Assembly: GCF_000015585.1 (NCBI RefSeq)
Contig: NC_008789.1
Coordinates: forward strand, 270,001 to 302,000
Reading direction: 5' to 3'
Origin: Halorhodospira halophila SL1
GTDB taxonomy: Bacteria; Pseudomonadota; Gammaproteobacteria; Nitrococcales; Halorhodospiraceae
DNA length: 32,000 nt
The notes under the pieces were generated by a model. It ran no database searches and was not told the origin of the DNA. It saw nothing but the letters and a program-made list of their open reading frames with translations. The first letter of the stretch is position 1, and every line of letters begins with the position of its first letter. Positions 2,065 to 21,378 of this stretch are shown piece after piece. The position numbers and the translations under genes were made by a program.

Positions 2065-2096
2065 ACCCCTCTGGGTCTAGAAGCCATGTAGCCACT

Positions 2097-2131: not shown

Positions 2132-2150
2132 GGGGGCCAATGTACGAGGC

Positions 2151-3990: not shown

Positions 3991-4023
3991 CCCCCGGTAC
4001 CCTGTGGGTGCCGGGGGCTTTTT
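3991..4023 (+). terminator. Rho-independent terminator after the BCCT gene
   Basis: CCCCCGGTACCC-TGT-GGGTGCCGGGGG (12-bp stem with one G-U pair), followed by CTTTTT. Confidence 0.8.
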
Positions 4024-4051
4024 CGTCCCCCCCGCCCACGCCCTCCGCGGG

Positions 4052-4060
4052 TGCTAGAAT
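4052..4060 (+). promoter_or_regulatory. Candidate extended -10 promoter (TGcTAGAAT) for the HEAT-repeat protein gene
   Basis: TG-n-TAGAAT sits 29 nt after the BCCT terminator. There is no good -35, which is tolerated by extended -10 promoters. The predicted start site near 4066-4069 lies downstream of the GTG at 4064 and so favours ATG 4091 as the start codon. Confidence 0.4.
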
Positions 4061-4090
4061 CGAGTGCTCACCCACGCCCGACAACCGCCC

Positions 4091-5353: not shown

Positions 5354-5356
5354 GCC

Positions 5357-5374
5357 CGGCGGCGCGCGCCGCCG
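5357..5374. terminator. GC-only perfect palindrome in the 30-nt gap between convergent genes (possible bidirectional hairpin)
   Basis: CGGCGGCGCGCGCCGCCG is an 18-nt perfect palindrome. No flanking T/A tracts, so terminator function is speculative. Confidence 0.3.
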
Positions 5375-5383
5375 TCCCGGGGG

Positions 5384-6217
5384 TCAGCGGATCAGACGCC
5401 GCCGGAAGAGGTAGGCCGCCACCGAGAAGGCGCCAACAATGTAGACCAGCGGCACCAGCAGGTGCAGCAGCGCCCCCGGCCCGATGCCCTCGCCCACCGC
5501 CAGCGGCCGGACCACCTCGACCATGTGCGCCAGCGGCAGCAGGTAGGCCAGCCCGGCGATCACCGCCGGCAGCTGCTCGATGGGGAAGAAGACCCCGGAG
5601 AGCAGCAGCATCGGGGTCAGCACCAGGGTGAAGTAGTAGAGGAAGAAGTCGTAGCTCGGCGACAGCGCGGTGATGATCAGCGCCATGCTGGCGAAGGCCA
5701 GCCCGGCCAGGAAGACCACCGGCAGCGCCAGGAGCATACCGGGCAGGCTGAGGATGCCCAGGGCCACGGCGACGATGCCGATGGCGCCGGCGCTGAGCAG
5801 CGACTTGCTGGCCGCCCACACCGCCTCACCGAGGACAATGTCGTCCACCGACAGCGGCGCGCCGAGCATCGCCGCCCAGGTCTGCTGGGTCTCCATGCGC
5901 GTGTACGCCGAGTAGAGCGCCTCGAAGCTGGAGGTGAACATGGCGCTGGAGCAGACGATCCCCGAGGCGATGAAGACGCTGTACGGCATCCCCGAATCGA
6001 GCTCGCCGATCAGCGCCCCGAGGCCGTAGCCGAAGGCCAGCAGGTAGAGCACCGGCTCACCGAAGTGGCCGAGCAGCGAGGGCCAGATCAGCCGGCGCCA
6101 GACGCGCAGGTTGCGCTGCCAGACGGGGATGAAGCGCAGGCTCGGCCGCGGCAGCCAGCGTTCGTTCTCGGCCCGCGGCGCGCGTGGCTCGGAGAGGGTC
6201 TCGGCGTGCTCGGGCAT
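5384..6217 (-). CDS. ABC-2 type transporter permease (NodJ/YadH-like)
   Basis: 277 aa starting MPEHAETLSE..., with six hydrophobic segments and an ABC-2 membrane-protein look. ATG 6217 lies 2 nt after the stop of the ATPase gene. The 603-aa ORF in the track is an out-of-frame upstream extension across the ATPase gene. Confidence 0.85.
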   Translation of the reverse strand: MPEHAETLSEPRAPRAENERWLPRPSLRFIPVWQRNLRVWRRLIWPSLLGHFGEPVLYLLAFGYGLGALIGELDSGMPYSVFIASGIVCSSAMFTSSFEALYSAYTRMETQQTWAAMLGAPLSVDDIVLGEAVWAASKSLLSAGAIGIVAVALGILSLPGMLLALPVVFLAGLAFASMALIITALSPSYDFFLYYFTLVLTPMLLLSGVFFPIEQLPAVIAGLAYLLPLAHMVEVVRPLAVGEGIGPGALLHLLVPLVYIVGAFSVAAYLFRRRLIR

Positions 6218-6219
6218 GC

Positions 6220-7164
6220 TCACTCCCGCAGTTCGTGGCCGGTGAGGTGGAGGAAGACGTCCTCGAGGTTGGTCGGACGCTGCAGGTAGGTCAGCCCCTG
6301 GGCCTGCAGGGCGCTGGCCACCGGCGCCGGGTCGTCGGCGTAGAGCAGTACCGTCTCGCCCACCTCGCGCACCCGCGCCGCCCCGGAGAGCCCGGACTGG
6401 CCGAGCCAGGTCCGCGCCTCGTCGCCGCGCAGCTCCACCACGTAGCGCTCCAGATGGCTGCGCGCCAGCGCCGCCGGGCTGTCGCAGTCGATGATCCGGC
6501 CGTGGTCCATGATCGCCAGCCGGTCGCAGAGGCGCTCGGCCTCCTCCATGTAGTGGGTGGTGATCACCAGGGTGCGCCCCTGCTTCTGCAGCGCCCGCAG
6601 CTTCTGCCAGATGTTCTGCCGCGCCTGGGGGTCGAGCCCGGTGGAGGGTTCGTCGAGGACCACCAGATCCGGATCGTTGACCAGCGCCCGGGCCAGGGTC
6701 AGGCGGCGCTTCATGCCGCCGCTGAGCGAGGCGATGGGCGCCTCGGCCTTGCCCTCCAGCGCGGCGAACGCCAGCAGCTCCTCCACCCGCGGCCGCCCCG
6801 CCTCGCGGCTGAGGCCGTGGTAGCTGGCGTAGGTGAAGAGGTTCTCGCGGACGGTGAAGTCCGGATCCAGGTTGTCGATCTGCGGCACCACCCCCATGCG
6901 CGCGCGCATCGCTCGGGCGCGGGCCGGTACCGGCTCGCCGAGGACCTCCAGGGTGCCGCCGTCCGGCGGCGTAACCCCGAGGATCATGCGCAGCGTGGTG
7001 GTCTTGCCGGCGCCGTTGGGCCCGAGCAGCCCGAAGCATTCGCCCCGGGGGACGTGCAGATCGATGCCGTCGACCACCGTAGTCCCGCCGTAGCGCTTGA
7101 GCAGGCCGACGGCCCGGACCGCCGGGCCATCGGCGCGGTCGGATTCGTTCACCATCGGGTCCAT
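6220..7164 (-). CDS. ABC transporter ATP-binding protein (NodI/YadG-like)
   Basis: Walker A GPNGAGKTT, Q-loop VVPQ, signature LSGGMKRR, Walker B LVVLDEPSTGLD, H-loop TTHYMEEA. Confidence 0.95.
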   Translation of the reverse strand: MDPMVNESDRADGPAVRAVGLLKRYGGTTVVDGIDLHVPRGECFGLLGPNGAGKTTTLRMILGVTPPDGGTLEVLGEPVPARARAMRARMGVVPQIDNLDPDFTVRENLFTYASYHGLSREAGRPRVEELLAFAALEGKAEAPIASLSGGMKRRLTLARALVNDPDLVVLDEPSTGLDPQARQNIWQKLRALQKQGRTLVITTHYMEEAERLCDRLAIMDHGRIIDCDSPAALARSHLERYVVELRGDEARTWLGQSGLSGAARVREVGETVLLYADDPAPVASALQAQGLTYLQRPTNLEDVFLHLTGHELRE

Positions 7165-7230
7165 CCCGCATCGCTAGAGGCCGTCGATGGTACACGCTGC
7201 GGCCATCCCCCGCAGCCCGCGCCGCCCGCC

Positions 7231-7851
7231 CTACCCCGGCCCCGCGGACAGCCGCTGCGCCACCTGGGCCAGGTCCTCGGGGGTGTTGACGTTGACCATG
7301 GCCGCCGAGCGGTCGTCGAAGTCCGCCGCGGCCACGCGGTGGCGCCCCAGCCAGGCATGGACGCGCCGCTCGCCGGCGGCCAGGGCGGCGTCGAGGTCGG
7401 CGGCCAGGCCCCGGTGCAGCAGCGCGTAGACCGGCTGCAACCGCCCCCCCAGCCGGGCCACCGCCCCATCGGCACCGGCCGCCTCCAGGGCCGCGGTCAG
7501 CCGCGGGGCCATATCGCCGGGGAGCAGCGGGGCGTCGCAGGGGACCACCAGCACCCGCTCACTCCGGGCGTGGGCCAGGGCACTGGCGATCCCGGCCAGC
7601 GGCCCCAGACCGCCGGGGTGGCAGTCGCCGTCCACCGGAACCCCCAGCGCCCGGTAGCGCGCGGCGTGGCGGTTGGCGTTGATGCGCACGGCGCCGACCT
7701 GGGGAGCCAGCCGGTCGAGGACATGGGCGACCAGGGGGCGGCCGGCCAGGGGGACCAGCCCCTTGTCGCGAGCGCCCATGCGCCGGCCGCTGCCGCCGGC
7801 AAGGATGACGCCGGTAAGCCGCGGGTCGGCAGCAATCGGGCACCCGGCCAC
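7231..7851 (-). CDS. mobA: Molybdenum cofactor guanylyltransferase
   Basis: N-terminal LAGGSGRRMG nucleotide-binding motif, DKGL, and GPLAGIASAL. GTG start at 7851, 7 nt after the moeA stop. Confidence 0.88.
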   Translation of the reverse strand: MAGCPIAADPRLTGVILAGGSGRRMGARDKGLVPLAGRPLVAHVLDRLAPQVGAVRINANRHAARYRALGVPVDGDCHPGGLGPLAGIASALAHARSERVLVVPCDAPLLPGDMAPRLTAALEAAGADGAVARLGGRLQPVYALLHRGLAADLDAALAAGERRVHAWLGRHRVAAADFDDRSAAMVNVNTPEDLAQVAQRLSAGPG

Positions 7852-7858
7852 GCCGGGC

Positions 7859-9124
7859 CTAGCGCTGCAGGCCTTCGAGGGGCTGCACCTGCACCGTCTC
7901 CCCCGGAGCCACGTCGCCGCGCTCGGCGTCGAGGACGATGAGGCAGTCGGCGTGGACCAGCGAGGTCAGCATCCCCGACCCCTGCGCCCCGGTGGAGCGC
8001 ACCTGCACGGTGCCGTCGGCCCCCGGCTCGAGGATGCCGCGCTGGAACTCCATGCGCCCCGGCCGCTTGCGCAGCCGCTCGGCGGCGATCACCGGCAGCT
8101 GGGCCGGCTGCAGGGTCCCGGCCTCGCCCATCAGCCGGCGCAGGGCCGGCTGGACCAGCTGGTAGAAGGTGGCCGCCGCCGAGACCGGATTGCCCGGCAG
8201 CCCGAAGAAGAGCGCCGGGCCGACGCGGCCGAAGGCCAGGGGCCGGCCCGGGCGCATGGCCACCCGCCAGAAGGCGATGTCGCCGGCGCACGCCAGGGCC
8301 TCCTTGACCGTGTCGGCCTCGCCGACGGAGACGCCACCGGTGGTGATCACCGCATCGGCGTAGCTGCCCGCCTCGCTGATGGCCGCCTTCAGGGCGCCCA
8401 GGTCGTCGCCGATCACCCCGCCGTCGACGGCGTCCACGCCCAGGCGGCGCAGTGCGGCGCCGATCAGGTGGCGGTTGCTGTCGTAGATCTGCCCCGGCCC
8501 CGGCGTCTGCCCGGGGCTGCAGAGCTCGTCGCCGGTGGAGAGGAAGGCGACCACCGGGCGCCGGTGGACGGTGACCTCCGGCCGCCCCAGGGAGCCGAGC
8601 ACGCCCACCTCCTGCGGGCGCAGCCGCCGTCCCGCAGCCAGGGCCACGCTGCCGGCGGCCAGGTCCTCGCCGGCGCGGCGGATGTTCTCGCCGGCCGCCA
8701 CCGGGCCGGGGATCCGCACCTGCCCGTCGTCGCCGTCCTCGACCCGCTCCTGCATCACCACGGCGTCGGCCCCCGGCGGGATCGGCGCCCCGGTCATGAT
8801 GCGCACGCACTCGCCGGCGGCCAGGGGATCCCGGCGCGCCGCGCCGGCGAGTACACGGTCAACCACCCGCAGGGTGCCCGGGCCGTTTTCCGGCAGATCC
8901 ACACTGCGCACCGCGTAGCCGTCCATGGCGGCGTTATCGGCGCCGGGCACATCCAGCGGGGCGTGGACGTTCTCGGCCAGCACCCGGCCCAGAGCGGCGG
9001 CCAGGGCCACCCGCTCCTGGCCGATCAGCGGCGCCACCTCATCGAGGATCCGCCGCCGCGCCTCGGCCACGGCCAGCCCCGGCCCGTCGTGCCCCGCTAC
9101 ACCCTGCGTCGCTTGCCGCGTCAT
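7859..9124 (-). CDS. moeA: Molybdopterin molybdotransferase
   Basis: Full-length MoeA/gephyrin-E pattern: DVPGADNAAMDGYAV, RIMTGAPIP, TTGGVSVGEADTVKEA and FGLPGNPVSAAATF. Confidence 0.92.
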   Translation of the reverse strand: MTRQATQGVAGHDGPGLAVAEARRRILDEVAPLIGQERVALAAALGRVLAENVHAPLDVPGADNAAMDGYAVRSVDLPENGPGTLRVVDRVLAGAARRDPLAAGECVRIMTGAPIPPGADAVVMQERVEDGDDGQVRIPGPVAAGENIRRAGEDLAAGSVALAAGRRLRPQEVGVLGSLGRPEVTVHRRPVVAFLSTGDELCSPGQTPGPGQIYDSNRHLIGAALRRLGVDAVDGGVIGDDLGALKAAISEAGSYADAVITTGGVSVGEADTVKEALACAGDIAFWRVAMRPGRPLAFGRVGPALFFGLPGNPVSAAATFYQLVQPALRRLMGEAGTLQPAQLPVIAAERLRKRPGRMEFQRGILEPGADGTVQVRSTGAQGSGMLTSLVHADCLIVLDAERGDVAPGETVQVQPLEGLQR

Positions 9125-9181
9125 ACCTGCATCTCCCTGTTCATGCCATGCCCGGTACCCTGTCCCCGGTGCGCCGCTCGC

Positions 9182-10215
9182 TCACGACGGCTCATCCTCC
9201 TCGCCGTCCAGCTCCGCCAGCTCCTCGACCACCTCCGAGGCGCGCTCCGGGTGGCGCACCCGGGCGACGTGGAACAGCGCGTCGCCCTCGTGGACCAGGG
9301 GCAGATTGGTGCGGCCGATGACGATGCCGTCGAAGGCCGCCAGGGCCTGGGTCTCGCCGTCGCCAAAGGGATCGGAGATCAGCCCCAGCTGCTCGCCGCG
9401 GCGCACCCGCTGGCCGAGCTGCACCGTCGTGCGCAGGATACCGCTGCTCTCGGTACGCACCCAGCGTGTATTCTCCACCTGGACCGGCCGGCGCGGCGGG
9501 TACTTGCGCTTGACCCGCGGGAGCATGCCCAGCTCACGCATCACGCCGGTGATCCCGCGCACCCCGAGGCGGATGCAGTCCTCGTCGAAGCGCAGCGCCT
9601 CGCCGGCCTCGTAGAGTAGCACCGGGATGCCGCGCTCGTCGGCGGCGTGGCGCAGCGAGCCGTCGCGCAGGTCGGAGTTGATGATCACCGGCGCCGAGAA
9701 GGCCCGCGCCAGCTCCAGGGTGCCGGGGTCGTCGAGGTTGGCGCGGATCTGCGGCAGGTTGGTGCGGTGGGCGGTGCCGGTGTGCAGGTCGATGGCGTGG
9801 GAGGCCCGCTCCAGCACCTGGCTCATGAACAGGTGAGCCAGCCGCGCCGCCAGCGAGCCGCCGGCGCTGCCCGGGAAGGAGCGGTTGAGGTCGCGGCGGT
9901 CCGGCAGGTAGCGGGTCTGCGCCAGCACCCCGAAGACGTTGACGATGGGCACCGCCAGCAGGGTGCCGCGCATCCGGCGCAGCTGCGGCAGCGCCAGCAC
10001 CCGGCGGATGATCTCGATGCCGTTGATCTCGTCGCCGTGGATGGCGGCGCTCAGGCACAGGGTGGGGCCGTCGCGGCGGCCGTGGACCACGTGCACCGGC
10101 ATGCCCACCGGGGTGTGGGTGTAGAGCTGCGCCACGTCGAGCTGCACGGTGCGCCGCTCCCCCGGGGGCACGGCCTGATCGCTGATCACGAAGGCACTGC
10201 GCCGCCGCCGGGCCA

Positions 10216-10216
<1 letters not shown>
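9182..10216 (-). CDS. Succinylglutamate desuccinylase/aspartoacylase (AstE/AspA) family zinc hydrolase, RimK-associated
   Basis: Zinc-ligand motif AIHGDEINGIE, then DLNRSFPG and DLHTG, typical of the M14-like AstE/AspA superfamily. Its ATG overlaps the rimK stop (TGATG). Confidence 0.8.
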
Positions 10217-11124
<908 letters not shown>

Positions 11125-11141
11125 ACAGTCTTCGGGTCTCC

Positions 11142-11606
11142 TCACGGGGTTGCGGTGTCACTGCGGGAACGGAGCGCGGCTCGCCCGGTCAGGTATGAGC
11201 CTTCGGGGTCGACCACGAACCGACCAGCCATGGCGGTGCGGCCGAGCAGCATACGAAAGCGCATGGTGTCCCGGTCGGTCAGGGTGAGCTCAGCCCGCCA
11301 GCGGATTCCACCGAGTTCGAGCAGGGTCGCAATCACCCAGCGCGACTCCCGGTGGCCACCGGAGTCCGCCACTACGCGGCGGTCCGTCGCCGGCGCCTCG
11401 CACCAGAGCTCCGGCTCGGTGGTGCCCTGACGAGGGTGGAGGCCGAAGCGCACCCAGGTCTGCCCGCCGCGCTCGAACGGCTCGATGGCGAAGGTGTGCA
11501 GGGCCGAGGTCCGCGCCCCGGTGTCCACCTTGGCCTTGAGGCGGCGGATATCGAGTTCCGGCAGCGCCACCCACTCGCGCCAGCCGATGCGTTGCCGCTC
11601 AGTCAC
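11142..11606 (-). CDS. Retropepsin-like 'ATP-dependent zinc protease' family protein (DUF785/PF05618-type), RimK partner
   Basis: 154 aa with [12 protein letters not shown] (a D-T-G-A aspartic-protease-like motif) and a second half [14 protein letters not shown] start overlaps the upstream gene's stop by 8 nt (GTGACTGA). Confidence 0.8.
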
Positions 11607-12396
11607 GGGCAGACTCCTTGCCAGGCGGCCGCGGGGGGCCGGGGATGACGGCGTTGCGCCCGGCGGCGTAGGCGGCGTAGCCCGGGCGGTGTTTCCGCAG
11701 GTGCGCCTCGAGCAGCGGCACGCCGGAGACCCGCAGCAGCAGAGCGGTCATCAGCAGCGGGGCGAAGACCGTCCACCAGCCGCCGGCCGCCGCGGCCAGG
11801 CCCCACAGCCCCCAGGCCACCAGGATCTCGCCAAAGTAGTTGGGGTGGCGGCTGTAGCGCCACAGCCCGCGATCGCAGACCTCGCCGGCGTTGCGCGCAG
11901 TGGCCCGGAAGCGCGCCAGCTGCCAGTCGGCCACCGCCTCGTAGAGCCATCCGAACAGGAAGAGCGCGGCCGCCGCCAGGGCCACCGGCCCGGTCCAGGT
12001 CTGGGCGTCGCCCCGGGCGATGGCGTGGAGCACCGGCGCCGCCGCCAGCCACAGGACCACCGCCTGGAGCCAGAACACGGTCACCAGGCTGCGCCGCGCC
12101 CAACCGGGGCCACCGGCTCGGCGCAGGGCGGCGTAGCGGGCATCTTCGCCGGCGCCCCAGCTGCGCCAGGTCAGGTAGCCGCTGAGCCGGCCACCCCACA
12201 GCGCCACCAGGGCCACAATCCACCAGCCGTGCGCGGGGAGCCCGGCCAGCGCCTGGTAGAGCAGCGCCAGCAGGACGAAGCCGGCGCCCCAGTAGCGATC
12301 CACCAGGCTGGCATCGCCGGTGCGCAGGCTGTACGCCCAGACGGCGGTCATCAGCAGCAGCACAGCGCCCAGGCCGGCGATGGCACTGACGAGCAT
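11599..12396 (-). CDS. DUF1295 / steroid 5-alpha-reductase-like integral membrane protein
   Basis: 265 aa from MLVSAIAG..., multi-TM, with the conserved C-terminal block [20 protein letters not shown] typical of DUF1295/ICMT-clan membrane enzymes. The ORF-track N-terminal extension to 12621 has no support. Confidence 0.75.
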
Positions 12397-12549
12397 CGGC
12401 ACCCCCGCGATCGAAGTTGAGTACCTGCGTAACGTAACTGCAAACGCTGGCGCCGCCAATGACAGCGGCGGTACCCTGTGGCGTTCCCCAGCGCACGGCC
12501 CGGGCTGCCCCGTGGCCGCCGCTTCATCTGCCAGGAGGATCATCGACCC

Positions 12550-13068
12550 ATGCGCATGCTGATCTCCGCCCTGATGATGTTTCTCATCATCATGATCGTG
12601 CTGGCCTTCGCCCGCGATCACCTGCGCCCGGCCGAGGAGGCGGATCTGCGCCTGACCGAACTCACCGCCGAGACCCCGCGGGATGAGCTGGAGGACCGGC
12701 TAGCGAAGGTGGAGTTCGACTGCACCGATGACGAGACCGGCCTGGAGACCGGCGAACGGGTCTGCTTCGCCCCGATCAGCCGCGCCGACGAGTACCACGC
12801 CAACTACCTGGCGCTGTTCTTCGACAGCGACAACGCCCTGGCCGCGGTGAACATCGTCCTCGACCCGGGCGAACACGAGGCCAACCACGAACGCCTGCGC
12901 GAGGCCCTCGGCGACCCCACGCGGCGGATCGAGGACGCCTTCACCTGGCTGGTCTGGGAGCGGGACGAGCACCTGATCCTGACCCAGGAAGAGCCGCCGG
13001 AGGACGACGCCCCCACCCTGATGTGGTTCCGCGACGCCGAGCTGATGGAGCGGCTGCTGCCGCGCTAG
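12550..13068 (+). CDS. Hypothetical membrane-anchored acidic protein
   Basis: AGGAGG at 12533-12538 precedes ATG 12550. N-terminal TM helix MRMLISALMMFLIIMIVLAF, then an Asp/Glu-rich domain of about 150 aa with two Cys. No family recognised. TAG stop shared with the convergent gene. Confidence 0.5.
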   Translation: MRMLISALMMFLIIMIVLAFARDHLRPAEEADLRLTELTAETPRDELEDRLAKVEFDCTDDETGLETGERVCFAPISRADEYHANYLALFFDSDNALAAVNIVLDPGEHEANHERLREALGDPTRRIEDAFTWLVWERDEHLILTQEEPPEDDAPTLMWFRDAELMERLLPR

Positions 13069-14405
13069 ATCGGCGTATCGGCCAGCACCAGGCGCTCGCC
13101 CCAAGGCGGCTCGGCGTCGGCCCAGGCCGGCGGCACCACCCACAGCAGCGGCCATGGCGGCCGGAAGCGGCACGGCCCCTGGAGATCGGTGAGCACCACC
13201 GCCTGATCCGGGGTGTGGCGGTCGGCCGCCTCGAGCAGCGGGGTGAAGTCCGTCCCGCCGCCCCCTTGGAACTGGAGTTCCGCCAGCGGCGAGGCCCCCG
13301 GCGCCAGGTGCACCACCCGGCGCACCCGATCATCGCCGACGATAACCACCAGCTGCGCCTCGCTGCGCCGCGTGATGGCGGCCAGCTCACCGGCGAAGCG
13401 CGCCAGCAGCCCGTCATCAATGGAGCCCGAGGCGTCCACCACCAGCGCCAGGCGGGGCACCCGGCGGGCGGTGACGATGCCCGGCTCCCACGGCATGCGC
13501 CGGCCGCCGGCGGTGCGCCCCCGATTGGCCAGCCACGACCGCGCCGGGCGCGACCAGGAACGCTCCGGCAGGCGCGCCAGCCCGCGGGCCAGGCGGGTGC
13601 GCAGGATATGCTCCCAGGGCGTGCGCGGCGTGGGCCGATCGGCCAGCAGCCCGCGCAGCATGGAGAAGGCGCCGTCGTCGGCGTGGGCGCGCACCAGGCG
13701 CTCCGACCAAGCGCGGGCCTCCTCCACCGCCACTTCCGGGGGCTCGCCGGCGGCCGGCATCAGGTCCGCCTCGGTGCCGGCGGCCAGCTGGCGCAGCCGC
13801 GCCGCCCGCGGCCCATCGGTCCGACCGGTGGCGGCGTGGCGCCGCCCCGAGGCCTCGCCACCACCGCCCTGCCCGGCCCGGCCGCGGCTGTCACTGCTGC
13901 CGCCGCGCCGGTCGTCCACGGCCCGGTAGAGGCGCTCCACATCCCACTCCAGCAGGGCCCGCTCCGGGGCGGCCGCGGCGTCCGGCAGCACCTCGCGGAG
14001 CACCCGCTCCAGGGTCACCGCCCCGGCCGGGAGGGCCAGCCAGTCCAGGTGGCCGAGGGTGGTGTTCACCAGGGCGTCGGCGCAGTGGTTGAACAATTCC
14101 GGGTCCACATCGCCGAGCACGCCGGCCAGGGCCTCCCGGCGCTGGGCGTGGCGCAGGGCCACGTGGAGGACCTGGTGGGCCACCCAGCCCACCTGCTCGG
14201 GCCGCGGCAACTCGGCGAAGGCCGGCGCGTAGTAGAGGGTGCGGCCGTCGTTGGCCACGGGGCCCTCGAGGACACCGTCGGCCACATCCCGGTGGTGCGC
14301 CCACAGGGCCAGTCCGCCGGTCCCCGGCGCCTGCTCGACCATGACGCGGATCGCCGGCGTCCCCCGGTGGGTGTAGGGCTCGGCCGGGTCGGGCTCAGTC
14401 GCCAT
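13065..14405 (-). CDS. Metallopeptidase-like (DUF2201_N-type) plus C-terminal vWA domain protein
   Basis: The N-terminal region carries the HxxxH-type helix WVAHQVLHVALRH (HQVLH where the family, as I recall it, has HExxH). The C-terminal vWA has the MIDAS motif LVVDASGSI. The start overlaps the AAA+ gene stop by 11 nt. Confidence 0.8.
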   Translation of the reverse strand: MATEPDPAEPYTHRGTPAIRVMVEQAPGTGGLALWAHHRDVADGVLEGPVANDGRTLYYAPAFAELPRPEQVGWVAHQVLHVALRHAQRREALAGVLGDVDPELFNHCADALVNTTLGHLDWLALPAGAVTLERVLREVLPDAAAAPERALLEWDVERLYRAVDDRRGGSSDSRGRAGQGGGGEASGRRHAATGRTDGPRAARLRQLAAGTEADLMPAAGEPPEVAVEEARAWSERLVRAHADDGAFSMLRGLLADRPTPRTPWEHILRTRLARGLARLPERSWSRPARSWLANRGRTAGGRRMPWEPGIVTARRVPRLALVVDASGSIDDGLLARFAGELAAITRRSEAQLVVIVGDDRVRRVVHLAPGASPLAELQFQGGGGTDFTPLLEAADRHTPDQAVVLTDLQGPCRFRPPWPLLWVVPPAWADAEPPWGERLVLADTPI

Positions 14406-15498
14406 CGCCGGCCCGCTCGGCCAGGTAGCGCTGGTAGACGGGACTGCCGAGGATCGCCGACTCCAGCCCGCGGGCCAGGCCGCGCTGGAACAGCAGTTCC
14501 ATGGTCAGGGTCTGGGCCTCGCGCGCCGGCAGCGGGGTGCGCCCGCGCATCTCGGGGAACTGCTCCACGATCTCTAGGGCCCGTGTCAGGGTCGCGGCGT
14601 CGTCCACGGCGGCCACCAGGCCGTAGATCATGCCGTAGAGCCCATCCAGGCTCTCGGGCAGCAGCGCCGCCGTCTCCGGCCCCGGGCGGGCGGCCAGCAG
14701 CCGGGTCACGTCGGTCGCCGCCTGCAGCTCGTCGAGCACCCCGAAGAACTCGGCGGCGTTGGCCGCGCCGATGCGCCCCTGCACGAACAGCCGCCGCGCG
14801 GCGTCGCCCAGATCGGCCCGCAGCACCGCCGAGACATCCTCCCAGCCCCGCGGGCTGGCGCCCACCAGGTGGTCGTTGGCCAGCTGCGTGGCGGTATCGT
14901 CCAGCCGGTCGGCGCGCACCCGCAGAAAGGCCATCACCTCGGGGGCCAGCTCGCGCTCGGCGGCGTAGCTCAGGAAGGCCTCCAGGGCCGTCTGGACGTT
15001 GAAGTGGAACATGCGATCGGCCAGCGCCGTGCCCATGTCGTGGCTCACCGCCCCCTGGAAGCGGGCGTTGCCCGCCGCCACCACCTGCCAGCCGTCGGGC
15101 AGGTGGTACTGCCCCACCTTGCGGTCGAGGATCAGCGAGTAGGCGGAGATCTGCAGGCGCTGATCGGCGGCGGTCAGCTCGTCGAGGAAGAGGATGCCCT
15201 CAGGCCGATCCGCCCCGGGCAGGAACTCCGGCGGGAACCAGACCGTCCGCTGCTGCTGCTCGTCGGCGTAGATCGCGCCGCGGATATCCACCGGCTCGAT
15301 GGTGGTCAGGCGCAGATCCACCAGCGGCACACCGAAGTGGGCCGCCACCTGGGCGACCACCGACGACTTGCCCACCCCGCGGGTCCCCCAGAGCATGGTG
15401 GCCCGCCGGCGCAACACCGGATCGGCGTACTGCTCGATCAGCGCCTGCTTGGCGGCGGCCACCGAGACCGCCGGGATGTTCATCGGATCAGCCGCCAT
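14395..15498 (-). CDS. MoxR-class (AAA_5) AAA+ ATPase
   Basis: Walker A GTRGVGKSS, Walker B GILFLDELTAA, sensor region VVAAGNA, and arginine-finger region ALADRM. A C-terminal helical extension of about 150 aa. I prefer ATG 15498 (MAADPMNIP), preceded by AGGGAGGGG; the ORF-track start at 15591 lies inside the upstream gene. Confidence 0.85.
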   Translation of the reverse strand: MAADPMNIPAVSVAAAKQALIEQYADPVLRRRATMLWGTRGVGKSSVVAQVAAHFGVPLVDLRLTTIEPVDIRGAIYADEQQQRTVWFPPEFLPGADRPEGILFLDELTAADQRLQISAYSLILDRKVGQYHLPDGWQVVAAGNARFQGAVSHDMGTALADRMFHFNVQTALEAFLSYAAERELAPEVMAFLRVRADRLDDTATQLANDHLVGASPRGWEDVSAVLRADLGDAARRLFVQGRIGAANAAEFFGVLDELQAATDVTRLLAARPGPETAALLPESLDGLYGMIYGLVAAVDDAATLTRALEIVEQFPEMRGRTPLPAREAQTLTMELLFQRGLARGLESAILGSPVYQRYLAERAGDGD

Positions 15499-16489
15499 CG
15501 GCCCCTCCCTGCCAGGTGGTTGCGTGCAGTGGCCGGGGCAGCGGCGGCCAGTCCACCAGCGGGACCTCGGTGCCGGAGAAGAGCAGCGCACCGATGGCCA
15601 GCAGTGGCGGCACCCCGTGGAGCCACGGCGGCATCTCGCCCTCCTGCAGCACCACGCCGAACAGCGGCACCGCGGCGAGGACCAGGAAGAAGACGGTCAT
15701 CGGCAGCAGCCGCCGACCCACCGCGGCCCAGCGCTGCCGCCGGTAGCGCCGGTGGTAACCGCTCGGCGGCGCGGCGAAGACCGCCGCCAGATGGGCGACG
15801 AGCTGCTGCGTCCGGGCCTCCACGTCGTCCCGGCGCCGGGGCTCGTGGCGGCGCAGCGCCAGGGTGCTGCGCCACGCCCCCTGCCGCCAGACCAGCGGCC
15901 GCCAGCCCCAGCCGAGCACCGCGAGCAGGTCCTCGGGCAGCGGGGGCTCACCGTCAGCGTGGGGGGTGATCGCGATCTGCCCCGGCAGCCCCGCCCCCGG
16001 AGTGGCGTCCAGCGTCACCCGCCGCCCGGCGACCTGGGCCTCGGCGGCCACCGCCCGCCACAGCGGCTCCCCGCCACCGGCGGCGCCGGCCGCCGAGCGG
16101 TAGCTGCGGCCGATGCAGACCCCGGCGGCCCCCACGAACAGCCGCGGGCGCACCTCCGCCGCCTGATAGCGGGCGAGCAGATCAGCGGGGCGGTCGCCGT
16201 CGATGCGCAGCCCGGCCCGGGTGCCGTCGGCGGCGGTGTAGGTGGCGCTCAGCCGGTAGCGGCCGGGCTCTGGCTCAGACAGGGCCAGGTGCTCGGTGAC
16301 CGGCCCCGGGGCGGCGTCCAGCCCTGCGTGGCTGACCGGCTCGAAGGCGATCAGCCGCCGCGCCCGATCGCAGGCCGCCAGATCCACGGTCCAGCCGGCG
16401 GCGCTGAACGGCGCCACCCGGGCGAGGATCTGGTGGTGGGAAAGCGGCTGGACCAAGGCGGTCGCCCCCTGCGTGGGCTGCTCCGCCAC
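15488..16489 (-). CDS. Hypothetical membrane-anchored protein, first gene of the MoxR/vWA module
   Basis: 333-aa ORF with strong G/C third-position bias. A soluble N-terminal region of about 230 aa, an Arg-rich segment HRRYRRQRWAAVGRR, then two hydrophobic helices (LLPMTVFFLVLAAVPLFGVVL and VPPLLAIGALLFSG). No family recognised. The GTG start at 16489 lacks an SD, so the true start may be up to about 36 nt downstream. Confidence 0.6.
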   Translation of the reverse strand: MAEQPTQGATALVQPLSHHQILARVAPFSAAGWTVDLAACDRARRLIAFEPVSHAGLDAAPGPVTEHLALSEPEPGRYRLSATYTAADGTRAGLRIDGDRPADLLARYQAAEVRPRLFVGAAGVCIGRSYRSAAGAAGGGEPLWRAVAAEAQVAGRRVTLDATPGAGLPGQIAITPHADGEPPLPEDLLAVLGWGWRPLVWRQGAWRSTLALRRHEPRRRDDVEARTQQLVAHLAAVFAAPPSGYHRRYRRQRWAAVGRRLLPMTVFFLVLAAVPLFGVVLQEGEMPPWLHGVPPLLAIGALLFSGTEVPLVDWPPLPRPLHATTWQGGADGG

Positions 16490-16553
16490 TCAGGTTACGC
16501 CGCCCCGGCCGGGCAATGAAGCCACTCGCTGCCGGGGTATACCGCCCGCTACC

Positions 16554-17516
16554 CTACTCCGGGCGCAGCAGCCGGCCGCTGAGCAGCTTGACCAGGGTGG
16601 CGACGAAGACCACGGCGATCACCAGCGTGGTCAGCACCACCAACAGCATCACGCCCCGGCCCCCGCCGGTCTCATAGGCCTGGACGAAGTGCTGACTGGC
16701 CAGGCAGAAGGCGGCCAGCGGGAAGGTGTAGGCCCACCAGGAGGGGAAGTACGGCAGGCGCACCAGCCGCGGCACCTGGATGAGCAGCAGCAGGAAGGTG
16801 AACAGCGCCTTGTAGTAGAGCAGCCGGCCGACGATTCCCGGGTCGCCGCCGTCGAGCAGGGCCACCCAGGCCAGGTAGCCCGCCGCCGGCGGGGCCAGCA
16901 GCACGAACAGCGTCGGCAGCAGGAACGCCGGCAGGTTGGGCGCGAAGATCAGCCGGTAGTAGACCAGCGTCATCAGGATCAGCCAGAAGAACAGCCCGAC
17001 GCTGAAGAAGAACCAGGCCACCTCCATGTAGCCCGCCTGCGCCGCCGGGATGGGCACCAGGATGTTGCCTACCGCGGGGATGAACCAGACCGGGTTGAGG
17101 GTGCCGAGCTCCAGCTGCCGGTGCATCCAGCTGGTGACGATGGCCAGCATCAGGACCAGGTGCAGCAGCGCCCCGCTACCCCACAGGGCCGTGGAAAGCG
17201 GCTCCGAATCGGTAACAATCCCCAGCAGGATCAGCGAGATGGAGATCGCCGGCAGGAAGTTGAGGCGCACCGGGTGGGCGATCTCGCCCCACGCCGCCGC
17301 CGGGTGCAGCGCCGCCTTGAGGGCGTAGCCGCCAGCCATGGCGAGGAAGCTGAGCACCGCCAGCACCGCCACGCCCTCGCCGACCACCGCCGGCCAGCCC
17401 CAAGAGGCGTGGCTCTCGTTCCAGACCATGGCCAGGCCGGCCAGACCCATGGTAGCGGCGAACAGGGGCAGCGGCAGGTGGGCCAGACTGACCCGTGCGT
17501 TCTCGTCCTGACTCAT
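16554..17516 (-). CDS. TehA/Mae1/SLAC1-family anion channel or dicarboxylate/tellurite-resistance transporter
   Basis: 320 aa from MSQDENARVSLAHLPLPLFAATMGLAGL..., with about 10 TM helices in the TDT-family pattern. AAGGAG SD precedes ATG 17516. Confidence 0.8.
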   Translation of the reverse strand: MSQDENARVSLAHLPLPLFAATMGLAGLAMVWNESHASWGWPAVVGEGVAVLAVLSFLAMAGGYALKAALHPAAAWGEIAHPVRLNFLPAISISLILLGIVTDSEPLSTALWGSGALLHLVLMLAIVTSWMHRQLELGTLNPVWFIPAVGNILVPIPAAQAGYMEVAWFFFSVGLFFWLILMTLVYYRLIFAPNLPAFLLPTLFVLLAPPAAGYLAWVALLDGGDPGIVGRLLYYKALFTFLLLLIQVPRLVRLPYFPSWWAYTFPLAAFCLASQHFVQAYETGGGRGVMLLVVLTTLVIAVVFVATLVKLLSGRLLRPE

Positions 17517-17594
17517 GCGTGGCTCCTTTGTGGATCGTTCAGCTCGGGCCATCCCGCGATGGCCGACACACATTACGGATCGGGCATGTCTTTG

Positions 17595-20243
17595 TCACGC
17601 GCCGCTGCCATCCAGACGCAGGGCCACGTGCATCAGCCCCGGGTCGTCGCTGCTCGGCTCGATGCGAAAGCCCATGGCCTCGTTGATCTTGAGCATCGGC
17701 TCGTTCTCGCGCAGCACCTCGCCGTAGATCTCGCGGATGCCGCGCTGACGGGCGTAGTCGACGATCCGGTGCATGAGCATCGGCCCCAGCCCCATGCCGG
17801 CCACCGAGGGGTCGAGCATGATGTCGTACTCGGCCTGCTCCAGATCGGGGTCGGCGCTGATGTGCACCATCCCCAGCAGCGGCGCCCGGCCGGGGATGCC
17901 GTCGCGGGTGATGACCAGGGCCATCTCGCGGTCGTAGTCGATCTGCGTCAGCCGCGCCGCCAGCTCCTGGGGCAGGCTCTTGAGCGCCTGGAAGAAGCGC
18001 ATGCGCACCTGCTCCGGCGGCGTGCGCTCGACCATGGCGTTGAGCTGCGGCCCGTCCTCGGGCAGCACCGGGCGCAGGTTCAGGCACTGGCCGTCGGGGA
18101 GCTCGATCCGCTCGTTGAGTTCGGTGGGATACGGCCGGATACACAATGATTCGGCGGGATCGCCGCGCTGGGGCTGGATCCCCACCCCGGCGTCCAGGGC
18201 CAGCACGCCGTGGCCGGTGGCCCACAGGGGATTGATATCCAGCGACTCGATGGCGCCGAAGTCGATCACCAGCTGCGAGAGCTTGACCAGGCTCAGGGCC
18301 ACGGCGTCCAGGTCCGGCTTGCGCAGCCCGCTGTCGACCAGCAGGCCGTAGATCCGGGTGCGCTGCATGATCTCCCGGGCCAGGTGCATGTTCAGCGGCG
18401 GCAGGCCGCAGGCCCAGTCGGCGATGGCCTCGGTTTCAGTGCCGCCGTGGCCGAAGTAGAGCACCGGCCCGAAGGGCCCGCCGGGGCGCACCCCGAGGGT
18501 CAGCTCGAAGGCCCCGTCGCGGCGGGTCATCGGCTGCACGGCGAAGCCGTCCACGGCCACGTCCTCACCGCGGAGCTCGTGCAGGCGGGCCAGCATCGCC
18601 TCGGCCTCGGCGCGGACCGCCTCGGGGCCGGTCAGATCCAGGGCCACACTGCCGGCCTGGGACTTGAGCTGCACCTCCGGGGACATCAGCTTCAGGGCCA
18701 CCGGCTGGTTCAGCTCGGCGGCCACCGCCGCGGCCTCCTCCGGGTCATTGGCCCGGCGGCTATCCACGCAGGGGATGCCGTAGGCGCTGAGCAGCCGCCC
18801 CGTCTGGTACTCGTTGAGATGGTCGCGCCCGGCGGTCAGCGCCGCCGAGAGGATCAGCCGCGCCTGTTCGTAGTCCGGCGTGAAGTCCTCGGGGAGCGAG
18901 GGCGGCGTCTGCATCAGCAGGGTCTGGCTGCGCCGGTACTGCAGGAGGCGGCTGTAAGCGCGCACCGCCTCCTCGGGGTAGGAGAAGGCCGGCACCGCCG
19001 CCGCGAGCCGGCGCAGCCCCGCCTCCCCGGCGGAGGGGTCCCAGGCGGCGAGCACCGGCTTGCGCAGCCGCTTGGCGTGGCGGGCCACCACCTCGGCCAC
19101 CGCATCGCCGTCGTCACTGGCACCGGGCGCCTTGAGGGCCAGGATGCCGCTGATGCGCCGGTCCTTGCCGAGGATCTCCAGCGCCCGGTCGTAGGCGTCG
19201 GCGCCGGCGTCCACCCCCATATCCAGCGGGTTGTGGCTGCTGGCGTTGCGCCGGGCGAGCTCCTGCAGCGCCTCGTTGCTCTCCGGCGCCAGCTGCTGCG
19301 GGCTGCTGTCGTGGCGGCGCAGGGCGTTGCTGGCCAGCAGCCCCAGACTGCGGCTGTTACCGAAGATGGCCAGCGGCCCGTCGCGGCCCGGGACCCGGCT
19401 GCTGTCGAGGATCTCCACGGCGCTGAACAGCTCCTCCAGGTCGTCCACCCGGACCACGCCGGCACGGCGGAAGGCGGCATCGTAGACGAAGTCGTCGATC
19501 TCCTCCTCGCCGACCTGGGGCGGCTTGAGGATGATCACCGGCTTCATGCGCGCCAGCCGGCGCAGCGCCGACATGAACTTGCGCGCCCGTCGCACTCGCT
19601 CGATGTAGACGATCACCGCCCGGGCCCGATGGTCGGTGGCCAGGTAGTCGAAGCTGTCACCCAGATCCACGTCGGTGGCGGCGCCGATGTGGATGATGTG
19701 CGACAGCCCCGAGTCGTTCTCGCGGCACCAGCGCAGGGCGGCGCCGGCCATGGCCGAGGACTTGGTGACCAGGGCGGCCTTGCCGGCGGCCAGGGTGATC
19801 GGCAACGACGAGGCGTGCAGCCCCCGGTGGGGGACGCTGATGCAGCTGCTCCCCGGCCCGGCCACGCGCACCAGATGGGGGCGCGACGCCTCGAGGATGG
19901 TCTGCTCCAGCGCCTCGCGCTGCTCCCGGGTGTAATCCCGAGGTACGGCGCGGGTGATGATCACGCCCCGGGTGCCACGCTCACCGAGGGCGGTGATCAG
20001 CGCCGGCACCTCCTCGAGCGGCCGGGTAATGACCGCCAGATCCGGTACCGCAGGCAGATCGTCGATGCCGGGGAAGACGGGCACCCCGCCCATCGAGTCG
20101 ATCCCCGCCATGACCGGCATCACCGGCCCCTGGAAGGGCTCGCTGAGCAGGTTGCGCAGGATGCGTCGGTCCGTATCGCTGGCCTCGCCGATCAGGGCGA
20201 TGGAGCGGGGCTGGAAGAGGCTTTCGAGATTGCGTACGGTCAT
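17595..20243 (-). CDS. Bifunctional NDP-forming acyl-CoA synthetase-like / GNAT protein lysine acetyltransferase (Pat/PatZ-type)
   Basis: 882 aa. N-terminal CoA-binding region (LFQPRSIALIGEAS), a succinyl-CoA-ligase-like region and an ATP-grasp region, and a C-terminal GNAT domain with acetyl-CoA loop VAGMGLGPMLMHRIVDYARQRG. Confidence 0.85.
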   Translation of the reverse strand: MTVRNLESLFQPRSIALIGEASDTDRRILRNLLSEPFQGPVMPVMAGIDSMGGVPVFPGIDDLPAVPDLAVITRPLEEVPALITALGERGTRGVIITRAVPRDYTREQREALEQTILEASRPHLVRVAGPGSSCISVPHRGLHASSLPITLAAGKAALVTKSSAMAGAALRWCRENDSGLSHIIHIGAATDVDLGDSFDYLATDHRARAVIVYIERVRRARKFMSALRRLARMKPVIILKPPQVGEEEIDDFVYDAAFRRAGVVRVDDLEELFSAVEILDSSRVPGRDGPLAIFGNSRSLGLLASNALRRHDSSPQQLAPESNEALQELARRNASSHNPLDMGVDAGADAYDRALEILGKDRRISGILALKAPGASDDGDAVAEVVARHAKRLRKPVLAAWDPSAGEAGLRRLAAAVPAFSYPEEAVRAYSRLLQYRRSQTLLMQTPPSLPEDFTPDYEQARLILSAALTAGRDHLNEYQTGRLLSAYGIPCVDSRRANDPEEAAAVAAELNQPVALKLMSPEVQLKSQAGSVALDLTGPEAVRAEAEAMLARLHELRGEDVAVDGFAVQPMTRRDGAFELTLGVRPGGPFGPVLYFGHGGTETEAIADWACGLPPLNMHLAREIMQRTRIYGLLVDSGLRKPDLDAVALSLVKLSQLVIDFGAIESLDINPLWATGHGVLALDAGVGIQPQRGDPAESLCIRPYPTELNERIELPDGQCLNLRPVLPEDGPQLNAMVERTPPEQVRMRFFQALKSLPQELAARLTQIDYDREMALVITRDGIPGRAPLLGMVHISADPDLEQAEYDIMLDPSVAGMGLGPMLMHRIVDYARQRGIREIYGEVLRENEPMLKINEAMGFRIEPSSDDPGLMHVALRLDGSGA

Positions 20244-20371
20244 CGGGCTCGGGACCTTGGCCGGCGCTGCACTGCACCACGCGCCAGTCTAGCGGTCCGG
20301 GCAACACGGAGGCCAGCCGGCGGCGACTGCAACGCCGGCCGCACCGGCATCCCAAGGCGGAGGAATCGGCA

Positions 20372-20632
20372 GTGACGGAAGAGACCGAGGCGCGCATCGA
20401 GCGGGCCCTGCGGGAGGCGCTGACGGAGATCGTACCGGAGGCGGACGTGGGCCGGCTGGACGCCGAGCGCACACTGCACGCCCAGCTGGGGCTCGACTCG
20501 GTGGACTTCCTGCGTTTCCAGGCGGCCCTGGAGCGCACCGCCGGGGTGTCGATCCCGGGGGCGCACGGCTACCGCCTGGCCACCCTGGACGGCTGCCGCC
20601 GGTACCTGCGCGAAAAGCTCCTGGCCGGCTAG
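20372..20632 (+). CDS. Stand-alone acyl/peptidyl carrier protein-like (PP-binding) protein
   Basis: 86 aa. GGAGGAA SD lies 6 nt before GTG 20372. A carrier-protein helix II motif LGLDSVDFLRF with the putative phosphopantetheinyl Ser. No synthase, ligase or PPTase gene is adjacent. Confidence 0.65.
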   Translation: MTEETEARIERALREALTEIVPEADVGRLDAERTLHAQLGLDSVDFLRFQAALERTAGVSIPGAHGYRLATLDGCRRYLREKLLAG

Positions 20633-21378
20633 CCGGCCTCGTCGGCGGGGGACGGCGCCTCTCCCAGGCCCGCCCGGCGGAAGATGGCCTGGAGCTCGGC
20701 ATCGGGCTCCGTGGCCAGGCGCACGGCGCCCCCGTCCGCGGGGTGGGGGACGACCAGTTCCGTGGCCACAAGCAGCAGCCGCCGGGCACCGAAGTGTTCC
20801 CGGAAGAACCGGTTGTTGGCGCCATCGCCGTGGGTGGTATCGCCGAGGATCGGGTGGCTGATCGCCTTCATGTGGCGGCGCAGCTGGTGCTGCCGGCCGG
20901 TCTGCGGATGCAGCGCCAGCCGGGTGAAGCGGGCGGTGTCGTAGCGCGAGACCGGAATGGGCAGCTCCGTCCAGGCCAGCGGCACGTAATCGGTCACCGC
21001 CGGCTGCGGCGCGCCCCCCTCACCCCGTCGCCCCGCCCCCAGGGGCCGATCGATGCGTCCGGGCGCCTCCACCCAGCCGCGGACCACGGCCTGGTAGCGC
21101 TTGCCGATGCGTTGCTCGCGGAAGGCGGCAGCCAGGACCGAGGCGGCATCGGGATCGAGGCCGAAGACCAGCACGCCGGCGGTGGCACGGTCGAGCCGGT
21201 GGACCGGATAGACCCAGTGCCCGCCGAGCTGATCGCGGAGGCGCTGCAGGACCACGTCCCGGTCGCGGTCGATGTTGCTGCGGTGGACCAGCAGCCCGGC
21301 GGGCTTGTAGACGGCGATCAGCCGCTCATCCCGGTAGAGTATGGCGAGGCTGCGATCGTCCTGGTCTGCGGTCTCCAC
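20629..21378 (-). CDS. truC: tRNA pseudouridine(65) synthase (RluA family)
   Basis: Collinear with E. coli TruC as I recall it: ILYRDERLIAVYKPAGLLVHRS, catalytic HRLDRATAGVLVFG, KRYQAVVRGW, and TGRQHQLRRHMKAISHPILGDTTHGD. Start placed at GTG 21378 (VETADQDD...) with GAGGA 8 nt upstream. The 420-aa track ORF is an unsupported extension. Confidence 0.9.
   Translation of the reverse strand: METADQDDRSLAILYRDERLIAVYKPAGLLVHRSNIDRDRDVVLQRLRDQLGGHWVYPVHRLDRATAGVLVFGLDPDAASVLAAAFREQRIGKRYQAVVRGWVEAPGRIDRPLGAGRRGEGGAPQPAVTDYVPLAWTELPIPVSRYDTARFTRLALHPQTGRQHQLRRHMKAISHPILGDTTHGDGANNRFFREHFGARRLLLVATELVVPHPADGGAVRLATEPDAELQAIFRRAGLGEAPSPADEAG

Follow-up and report, generated by a model that had tools for sequence, protein, structure and literature searches.

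Three minus-strand genes of Halorhodospira halophila SL1, designated g1, g2 and g3 and contained in a stretch of 32,000 nt (the window), form a real and widely conserved unit. They encode, respectively, an inner-membrane protein of an unnamed family, a MoxR-type AAA+ ATPase and a protein that combines a zincin-like domain with a domain of the von Willebrand factor A (vWA) type. With slightly better than even confidence, it is proposed that the triad is a housekeeping-type, chromosomal MoxR–vWA remodelling machine that acts on the cytoplasmic side of the inner membrane, with the g1 product as its dedicated partner. The genes and their junctions lie at the following positions of the window:

15488..16456, minus strand: g1, inner-membrane protein of an unnamed family, 322 aa (open reading frame, ORF; homologue starts)
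14395..15498, minus strand: g2, AAA_5/MoxR-type AAA+ ATPase, 367 aa (Pfam AAA_5; phrog_1297)
13065..14405, minus strand: g3, zincin-like plus vWA protein (DUF2201_N + DUF2201), 446 aa (Pfam; phrog_1314; AlphaFold)
15488..15498, minus strand: g1/g2 overlap of 11 nt, ATGGCGGCTGA (junction read directly)
14395..14405, minus strand: g2/g3 overlap of 11 nt, ATGGCGACTGA (junction read directly)

The linkage of the three genes was counted from both sides. A scan with one genome per species found 154 genomes carrying g1, and the 80 loci kept are those most similar to the query. At 78 loci with at least 2.6 kb of sequence downstream of g1, the order g1, ATPase gene, g3 on one strand was found in 59 cases (59/78). 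From the ATPase side, a metagenome scan showed g1 upstream of the ATPase gene at 47 of the 57 loci with enough upstream sequence, and five more have the order g2–g3–g1, which brings the loci carrying g1 to 52/57; g3 lies downstream of the ATPase gene at 57/64 loci with enough downstream sequence. The linkage is therefore kept through rearrangement, which is strong evidence for a functional unit. An earlier analysis of the letters alone (the sequence-only reading) had taken the genes as one unit and suggested looking in other genomes for the co-occurrence of g1 with the ATPase/vWA pair; the co-occurrence held from both sides.

Furthermore, in Rhodopseudomonas, Ectothiorhodospira and Thiocapsa genomes that were reached through the ATPase, a g1 homologue is present upstream (1e-104 to 1e-131). 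The g1 tree largely tracks taxonomy. No fourth gene recurs beside the triad across the loci, the flanks vary by lineage, and the genes inserted between g1 and g2 at three loci (L011, L056 and L076) are mutually unrelated. A literature search found no study describing the triad.

Purple phototrophs are strikingly frequent among the triad hosts, both at the genome loci and among the named ATPase and g3 matches. The phototrophic hosts comprise Thiocapsa, Thiocystis, Lamprocystis, Halochromatium, Thiohalocapsa, Thiodictyon, Thioflavicoccus, Ectothiorhodospira, Ectothiorhodosinus, Halorhodospira, Rubrivivax, Rhodopseudomonas and Rhodoblastus, and the remaining hosts belong mostly to Burkholderiales, Steroidobacteraceae and Nevskiaceae.

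In the window, the GC content at codon positions is coding-like in all three ORFs (0.92–0.93 at the third position, GC3, and 0.54–0.59 at the second, GC2), and the NCBI proteins ABM61044, ABM61043 and ABM61042 of strain SL1 are 100% identical to the three products. The ORF list and the direct reading of the junctions bear out the description of three minus-strand ORFs with an 11-nt overlap at each junction. The final codons of g1 (stop at 15490–15488) contain the ATG of g2 (15498), and those of g2 (stop at 14397–14395) contain the ATG of g3 (14405). A Shine–Dalgarno core, GGAGG, is found at 15504–15508, 5 nt ahead of the g2 ATG. Both junctions are near-identical and follow the pattern CGATGGCG[G/A]CTGA. 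In other genomes the spacer between g1 and g2 usually measures 10–100 nt, so an 11-nt overlap between these two genes is a Halorhodospira-specific trait; overlaps of 4–8 nt between g2 and g3 are common, as seen at loci L001, L086 and L088.

With some flank included, the minus strand reads CGATGGCGGCTGA at 15488–15500 and CGATGGCGACTGA at 14395–14407, two sequences that are almost alike. At both overlaps, the upstream protein ends in D-G-G/D-stop and the downstream protein begins with M-A-A/T. This likeness could be due to chance or could reflect a common translational-coupling element.

The 333-aa ORF originally attributed to g1, which opens at GTG 16489, does exist, and NCBI carries both the 322-aa and the 333-aa versions. 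However, the start is most likely TTG 16456, giving 322 aa, because all homologues open at a conserved PLTHH and the sequence AGGGGG is placed 8 nt before this TTG. Plus-strand ORFs (e.g., 13023–15002 and 15299–16519) were rejected as high-GC artefacts, with a codon-position GC content that is non-coding-like or borderline and with all of the homology on the minus strand.

The motor component, g2, carries the two nucleotide-binding motifs of its class:

15364..15387, minus strand: g2 Walker A GTRGVGKS, residues 38–45 (G38-TRGVG-K44-S45) (sequence, alignment)
15178..15192, minus strand: g2 Walker B LFLDE, residues 103–107 (D106-E107) (sequence, alignment)

The first assignment of g2 as a MoxR/AAA_5 ATPase with intact Walker A and B motifs agrees with its Pfam AAA_5 match, which is above the cut-off (26.6 bits against 22, E 6.7e-6). 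Further motifs are the sensor-1 N144, a DR-type arginine finger at R162 and an SPR-type sensor-2 at P216-R217, and all of the catalytic motifs are invariant in 63 orthologues and two phage homologues. The protein is 70–80% identical across alpha-, beta- and gammaproteobacteria, with 50% of its columns at least 98% invariant in the 63 orthologues. The best PDB relatives of the g2 profile are the midasin AAA modules (7.6e-8), CbbQ (5.5e-4) and CobS (5.6e-3), all of them weak matches (profile matches to PDB reach only 1e-8 to 1e-3) that span only the N-terminal half of g2. No NCBIfam model comes near its cut-off, with CobS reaching 13 bits against 558. To judge from these comparisons, g2 is a member of the MoxR/midasin clade that falls outside the characterised subfamilies (CbbQ/NorQ/GvpN, RavA, MoxR proper, CoxD and CobS).

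The protein encoded by g3, which has the domain layout of the COG3864 type ('predicted metal-dependent peptidase' with vWA), has two domains, each with a recognisable metal-site motif:

13476..14375, minus strand: g3 zincin-like domain (DUF2201_N), residues 11–310 (Pfam)
14148..14177, minus strand: g3 degenerate zincin motif H77-Q-V-L-H81-VALR-H86 (family consensus HExxHxxxxH)
13083..13451, minus strand: g3 vWA domain, residues 319–441 (Pfam, Foldseek)
13422..13436, minus strand: g3 MIDAS (metal ion-dependent adhesion site) motif D324-A-S326-G-S328, completed by T385 and D407 (column counts)

Both domains are covered almost from end to end by Pfam models: PF13203 (DUF2201_N) is matched at profile positions 2–270 of 271 (residues 11–310, 6e-93) and PF09967 (DUF2201, vWA-like) at positions 1–122 of 123 (residues 319–441, 3e-44). 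The AlphaFold model of g3 has a predicted local distance difference test (pLDDT) score of 82. By Foldseek, its vWA domain matches Ro60, TFIIH p44, CLCA1, integrin I-domains and NorD with a probability of 1.00; all matches come through this domain, and the zincin-like domain gave no structural match in the same search.

Column counts over 59 orthologues separate the conserved from the variable parts of these sites. Among the MIDAS residues, three (D324, S326 and S328) are invariant at 59/59 and two (T385 and D407) are found in 58/59 sequences, and the three histidines of the zincin motif are nearly as constant (H77 and H81 in 57/59, H86 in 59/59). Position 78, which is occupied by the catalytic Glu in HExxH, contains E in 40 sequences, Q in 12, A in 5, and R and T in one each, with Q in the window protein; Glu has thus been replaced in 19/59 orthologues, in several separate clades. 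In zincins, a Glu-to-Gln substitution abolishes catalysis. The peptidase-like domain is probably non-catalytic in H. halophila because its motif reads HQVLH. Of the metallopeptidase-like/vWA protein described at first, the DUF2201_N region and the vWA domain with a complete MIDAS stand, but the metallopeptidase itself is probably inactive here. Furthermore, since Glu has been lost repeatedly while the histidines and the MIDAS residues stay, this pattern of substitution indicates that proteolysis cannot be the conserved core activity of the family. What is conserved, on the same column evidence, is metal or peptide binding by the zincin-like domain together with MIDAS-mediated binding.

Distant homologues of the g2–g3 pair are also encoded by phages. 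g2 matches phrog_1297 at 6e-66 and g3 matches phrog_1314 at 4e-41, and the ATPase matches 841 phage records, mostly from N4-like Schitoviridae, with 27–35% identity. The phage pair shares the two-gene architecture and order of g2 and g3. It differs in the low identity of the ATPase, in the patchy BLAST matches of the adaptor (the g3 homologue), in the retention of the catalytic Glu by that adaptor and in the lack of a g1-like membrane protein gene at the phage loci examined. In Stenotrophomonas phage Paxi (L091), gp26, the ATPase, is followed by gp27 at 4984–6138, which contains a zincin motif (HELDHVARLH) as well as DVSGS and GGGGT (vWA/MIDAS). Both Paxi gp27 and phrog_1314 are labelled 'HNH endonuclease', an annotation that is contradicted by the domain content and looks wrong from the sequence. 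A MoxR/metallopeptidase–vWA pair has been described in jumbo phages by Iyer et al., with a proposed role in virion assembly (PMC7824862). A recent mobile-element origin of the module was considered and rejected on a tblastn search with g3, which returned no phage match at 1e-5 and one weak plasmid match. That close relatives of the module are missing from phage records and nearly missing from plasmids speaks for its housekeeping character, as do the 70–80% identity of the ATPase across three proteobacterial classes and the lack of PADLOC matches.

The third component, g1, has the following predicted parts:

15767..16456, minus strand: g1 cytoplasmic domain, residues ~1–230 (N-terminal helix, ~12 beta-strands) (AlphaFold secondary structure)
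15908..15940, minus strand: g1 motif LPEDLLAVLGW, residues 173–183 (conservation over the family)
15569..15706, minus strand: g1 transmembrane (TM) hairpin, residues 251–296 (hydropathy, charge counts, AlphaFold helices)

Profile searches of Pfam, NCBIfam, PADLOC, PHROGs and PDB sequences with g1 found no match (in Pfam, none at E<=0.1). Its AlphaFold model is confident (pLDDT 81, predicted template modelling score 0.77) and consists of an N-terminal helix, ~12 beta-strands, a long helix and a helical hairpin, with helices at residues 231–269 and 277–296. Foldseek comparison of this model with PDB and BFVD found no relative, the best E values being 0.05–0.1 and the template modelling scores mostly <0.3. 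Hints of lipocalin, hot-dog and beta-barrel folds were weak and not significant and were not used.

The statement that g1 belongs to no recognised family therefore stands by profile and by fold, the searches suggested for it having reached no characterised family; however, g1 is not an orphan. An exhaustive profile search recovered 470 clusters at 50% identity with E<=1e-3, of which 305 have E<=1e-30, so that the family numbers at least 470 clusters, all of them full-length (~310–380 aa). A word-indexed search for g1 relatives had returned 15 clusters only.

The first description of g1 as a soluble domain of ~230 aa followed by an Arg-rich segment and two TM helices is matched by hydropathy, charge and the AlphaFold model. 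Hydropathy marks one strong helix at 251–271 and a second, weaker one at 278–296; the Arg-rich segment HRRYRRQRWAAVGRR precedes the hairpin, 13 Arg/Lys are counted within the 50 residues ahead of the first helix, and a conserved PPLPRP...W tail follows. Because hydropathy, charge distribution and the model agree, g1 is predicted to be an N-in/C-in hairpin protein with a cytoplasmic N-terminal domain of ~230 aa.

Conservation was measured over 158 family representatives, with a median identity of 34% to the window protein. D176, within the LPEDLLAVLGW motif, is invariant (158/158), H7, H8, H222 and H235 are 95–99% conserved, and D25, R31, R34 and R242 are also among the most conserved residues. 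In the cytoplasmic tail after the hairpin, P304, P307 and W315 are conserved in at least 98%. The window protein carries every mark of the family: the PLTHH N-terminus, VDLxxSDR, LPxDLLAVLGW, PPxxFHxRxxxARW, the TM hairpin and the PPLPRP...W tail.

From these elements we infer a complex of the three proteins with a remodelling outcome. In the proposed mechanism, g2 would be the AAA+ motor, presumably a hexamer as in related ATPases, and g3 the adaptor, whose intact MIDAS would grip an acidic side chain of a partner. Characterised MoxR–vWA systems pair a hexameric ATPase with a single vWA adaptor, the MIDAS of which holds an acidic side chain of the client, and the client is then remodelled through ATP hydrolysis. 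In CbbQ6–CbbO1, the MIDAS binds an acidic residue of Rubisco (Asp82/Glu75) and ATP hydrolysis remodels Rubisco (PMC4660213). Because of this precedent for a MIDAS that binds an acidic side chain (PMC4660213), D176 is put forward as a candidate acidic ligand, offered by the LPxDLLAVLGW loop of the g1 cytoplasmic domain. The zincin-like domain of g3, with its three metal-binding histidines kept and its Glu lost, would serve as a peptide- or metal-binding module without cleavage, and the peptide held in the pseudo-zincin cleft could perhaps be a conserved terminus of g1. The TM hairpin of g1 would anchor the complex in the membrane, and ATP hydrolysis would alter the conformation or assembly of g1, or of a membrane complex recruited by g1, which may be client, adaptor or effector. 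In favour of a remodelling machine, the nearest solved relatives of g2 (midasin, CbbQ and CobS) are all MIDAS- or vWA-coupled remodellers.

Several observations weigh against this proposal or limit it. Identity across orthologues falls from 70–80% in g2 through 51–59% in g3 to 32–41% in g1, and the much faster evolution of g1 compared with the ATPase suggests, as a pattern of rates, an adaptor rather than a sole client. It also suggests that the strongest constraint on the motor comes from something other than g1. Since the ATPase is far more constrained, g1 is likely to serve as an anchor or adaptor through which another, highly conserved client reaches the machine. Moreover, 19/78 g1 loci have no ATPase/g3 pair. 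These unpaired loci represent a few paralogous clades, one in Chromatiaceae (near rho, CIA30 and DUF192) and one in Burkholderiales, and several genomes carry one linked and one free copy. The free-standing copies retain every invariant residue, and for this reason proteins of the g1 family may also act without the adjoining pair. Conversely, the ATPase gene stands alone at five related metagenomic loci (L100, L101, L104, L106 and L112; ATPase at ~4001–5100). Finally, HExxH is intact in 40/59 g3 orthologues, so that proteolysis may be relevant for some members of the family.

Thiocapsa and its relatives (L008, L012, L014, L020, L022, L024 and L070) carry the second, free g1 paralogue at ~6001–6950, a conserved spot between rho and convergent genes for CIA30-domain and DUF192 proteins. 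At the five metagenomic loci, the lone ATPase is 78% identical, has no g1 or g3 within 4 kb and comes after a DUF1840 gene.

Alternatively, on the model of NorQD, CoxDE, CobST and BchID, the triad could be a machine that inserts a cofactor or metal into some other membrane enzyme. In that case, g1 would be an adaptor or a His-rich metallochaperone, and the client would be encoded elsewhere, possible examples being [NiFe] hydrogenases and membrane complexes of photosynthesis or respiration. This explanation is rather unlikely, although several data speak for it: the three-His site of g3 is kept even without the catalytic Glu, g1 has four near-invariant histidines, the ATPase shows a weak similarity to CobS, and the far higher conservation of the ATPase than of g1 is what would be expected for a very conserved client. 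In addition, 27/80 genome loci come from purple-phototroph taxa, with more added by the named matches, but this enrichment is descriptive and biased, the 80 kept loci being those most similar to the query. In one metagenomic lineage a lone ATPase gene lies upstream of an operon for a [NiFe]-hydrogenase small subunit, ~420 nt away, and in Ectothiorhodospira sp. BSL-9 (L088) the triad is placed between hypDE and hypABFC; both contexts point to a hydrogenase. However, neither the window nor ~160 other loci have a candidate client beside the triad, and hydrogenase or hyp genes appear only in that lineage and in L088. The hydrogenase link, which is real in the one lineage and suggestive in L088, is retained as a lead only.

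The operon beside the lone ATPase gene encodes the [NiFe]-hydrogenase small subunit, a 4Fe-4S HybA-like protein and an NrfD-like protein. In L088, the hyp genes lie at 1083–3189 (hypD-hypE) and 17122–20872 (hypA-hypB-hypF-hypC), with about ten unrelated genes between.

It is also conceivable, though doubtful when all of its parts are taken together, that the triad is a chaperone, so far unrecognised, which assembles a membrane complex typical of purple phototrophs and related bacteria or inserts metal into it (e.g., a [NiFe] hydrogenase, or a complex of photosynthesis or respiration). In that case g1 would be a His-rich membrane metallochaperone or adaptor without a recognisable fold relative, the three-His pseudo-zincin of g3, dispensable for catalysis, would hold a metal or a client peptide, and N4-like phages would have borrowed the same ancient two-gene engine as a core gene pair.

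Another improbable explanation is an ATP-regulated, membrane-associated metalloprotease, in which g3 would cleave g1 or a protein presented by g1 and the vWA domain and ATPase would deliver or unfold the substrate. The match of g3 to a Pfam 'putative metallopeptidase' domain at 6e-93 agrees with this idea, as does the HExxHxxxxH motif kept in those 40 orthologues and in the N4-like phage homologue, and the conserved ends of g1 (PLTHH and PPLPRP) could sit in a zincin cleft. Against it, the window motif reads HQVLH, Glu has been lost independently (to Q, A, R or T) in 19/59 orthologues while the other motifs of the three proteins are conserved, and a literature search found no peptidase activity reported for DUF2201_N. 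Only the Glu-retaining orthologues could be regulated proteases.

Effectors with two TM helices are common in abortive-infection systems, and g1 shares this layout. Nevertheless, a nucleoside triphosphate-dependent anti-phage conflict system of the ternary MoxR–vWA type, with g1 as a membrane-disrupting effector released on infection, is very improbable: the systems of Kaur et al. 2020 (PMC7159879) have a similar ternary architecture and phages encode distant homologues of the pair, but PADLOC-DB 2.0 yields nothing significant (best E 0.016, P-loop region only), the bpMoxR profile scores 13.6 bits on g2 against a cut-off of 27, the 70–80% identity of the ATPase across classes is the opposite of what conflict systems typically show, namely fast diversification, a single conserved family and not a set of swapped effectors supplies the third component, the neighbours are housekeeping genes and not defence islands, the module is essentially absent from plasmids and the g1 tree largely follows taxonomy. 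The sequence-only reading had mentioned conflict systems as an option; the extreme conservation of the ATPase, the absence from plasmids and the lack of PADLOC matches disfavour it, and a defence role is unlikely.

Returning to the remodelling machine at the inner membrane, its closest characterised parallels are CbbQ–CbbO and NorQ–NorD. In these systems too, the gene that follows the MoxR-type ATPase gene, and often overlaps it, encodes a protein whose C-terminal vWA domain has a perfect MIDAS; CbbQ belongs to the best matches of g2 in PDB sequences (5.5e-4), and the fold matches of g3 include NorD (9qhd_G). Unlike them, the triad has no cbb or nor genes nearby and matches no NCBIfam equivalog, the N-terminal part of g3 is zincin-like and not a CbbO/NorD N-domain, and a third, membrane-protein gene is conserved. 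The earlier remark that no known client is nearby agrees with the survey of the window, which found no nor, cbb, cox, gas-vesicle or chelatase (cob/bch) genes. The neighbours of the triad in the window are genes for a SLAC1/TehA-like protein, a Pat-type acetyltransferase, a DUF1295 protein and RimK, among others.

The ternary systems of Kaur et al. 2020 also couple a MoxR–vWA pair to an obligatory third protein, which is the proposed target of restructuring (PMC7159879). Their third components are VMAP, iSTAND (inactive STAND), FtsH or a beta-propeller (PMC7159879), and g1 is none of these. Effector or adaptor domains and diversification are lacking in the triad, and its host taxa and level of conservation are different. 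A combination of a zincin with a MIDAS-bearing vWA domain is likewise found in eukaryotic CLCA1, whose vWA domain is among the best matches of the g3 vWA domain (6pyo, E 9e-4). However, CLCA1 is extracellular and has no ATPase coupling, and the likeness is architectural only, homology between the zincin domains not being seen. The module thus lies within the AAA_5 and DUF2201 families and outside CbbQO, NorQD, CoxDE, RavA–ViaA, the chelatases, the systems of Kaur et al. and those in PADLOC. It is set apart by its fixed third component, which has no named family or recognisable fold, and by an often decayed peptidase motif.

The architecture of the triad will not surprise specialists in AAA+ and vWA proteins. 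Few AAA+ machines are as widespread as MoxR–vWA pairs, of which, to our knowledge, only a handful have known clients, namely Rubisco, NO reductase, CO dehydrogenase and the chelatases. As a defined and linked candidate partner, g1 makes the client question directly testable, and its family, which is unnamed and lacks a fold relative in PDB and BFVD, comprises hundreds of clusters. The repeated loss of Glu with the metal ligands kept is a natural experiment, and it suggests that the DUF2201_N 'metal-dependent peptidase' is often not a peptidase. The triad is also linked with N4-like phages, through a pair of core genes that is misannotated, by all appearances, as 'HNH endonuclease'. Rhodopseudomonas palustris and Rubrivivax gelatinosus are tractable carriers.

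Regarding the surroundings of the triad in the window, a gene for a SLAC1/TehA-type anion channel (16554–17573) lies on the minus strand like g1, and its end is 97 nt upstream of where g1 starts. No terminator is predicted between this gene and g1, and co-transcription of the two is possible given an intergenic space without a predicted terminator-like site; in other genomes the SLAC1/TehA-type gene is unlinked to the triad. A scan for sigma-70 promoters found none. On the other side, a convergent plus-strand ORF (12478–13068, 196 aa) is coding-like by its GC3 of 0.92 and encodes an N-terminal hydrophobic segment and an acidic C-terminal part. Its stop overlaps that of g3 by 4 nt; it has no Pfam or PHROG match and is not conserved beside the triad elsewhere.

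No Rfam family and no tRNA were found anywhere in the window, and a quick survey assigned no gene in 5353–6220, 7173–7859 or 9181–10216. A plus-strand ORF at 4058–5353 (~430 aa, GC content 0.77) has only weak HEAT-repeat matches. Genes for RimK (ATP-grasp) and a PF05618 'putative ATP-dependent zinc protease' lie at 10216–11606 on the minus strand and overlap by 4 nt, and directly upstream of them, with an 8-nt overlap, is a gene for a DUF1295 membrane protein (11599–12621).

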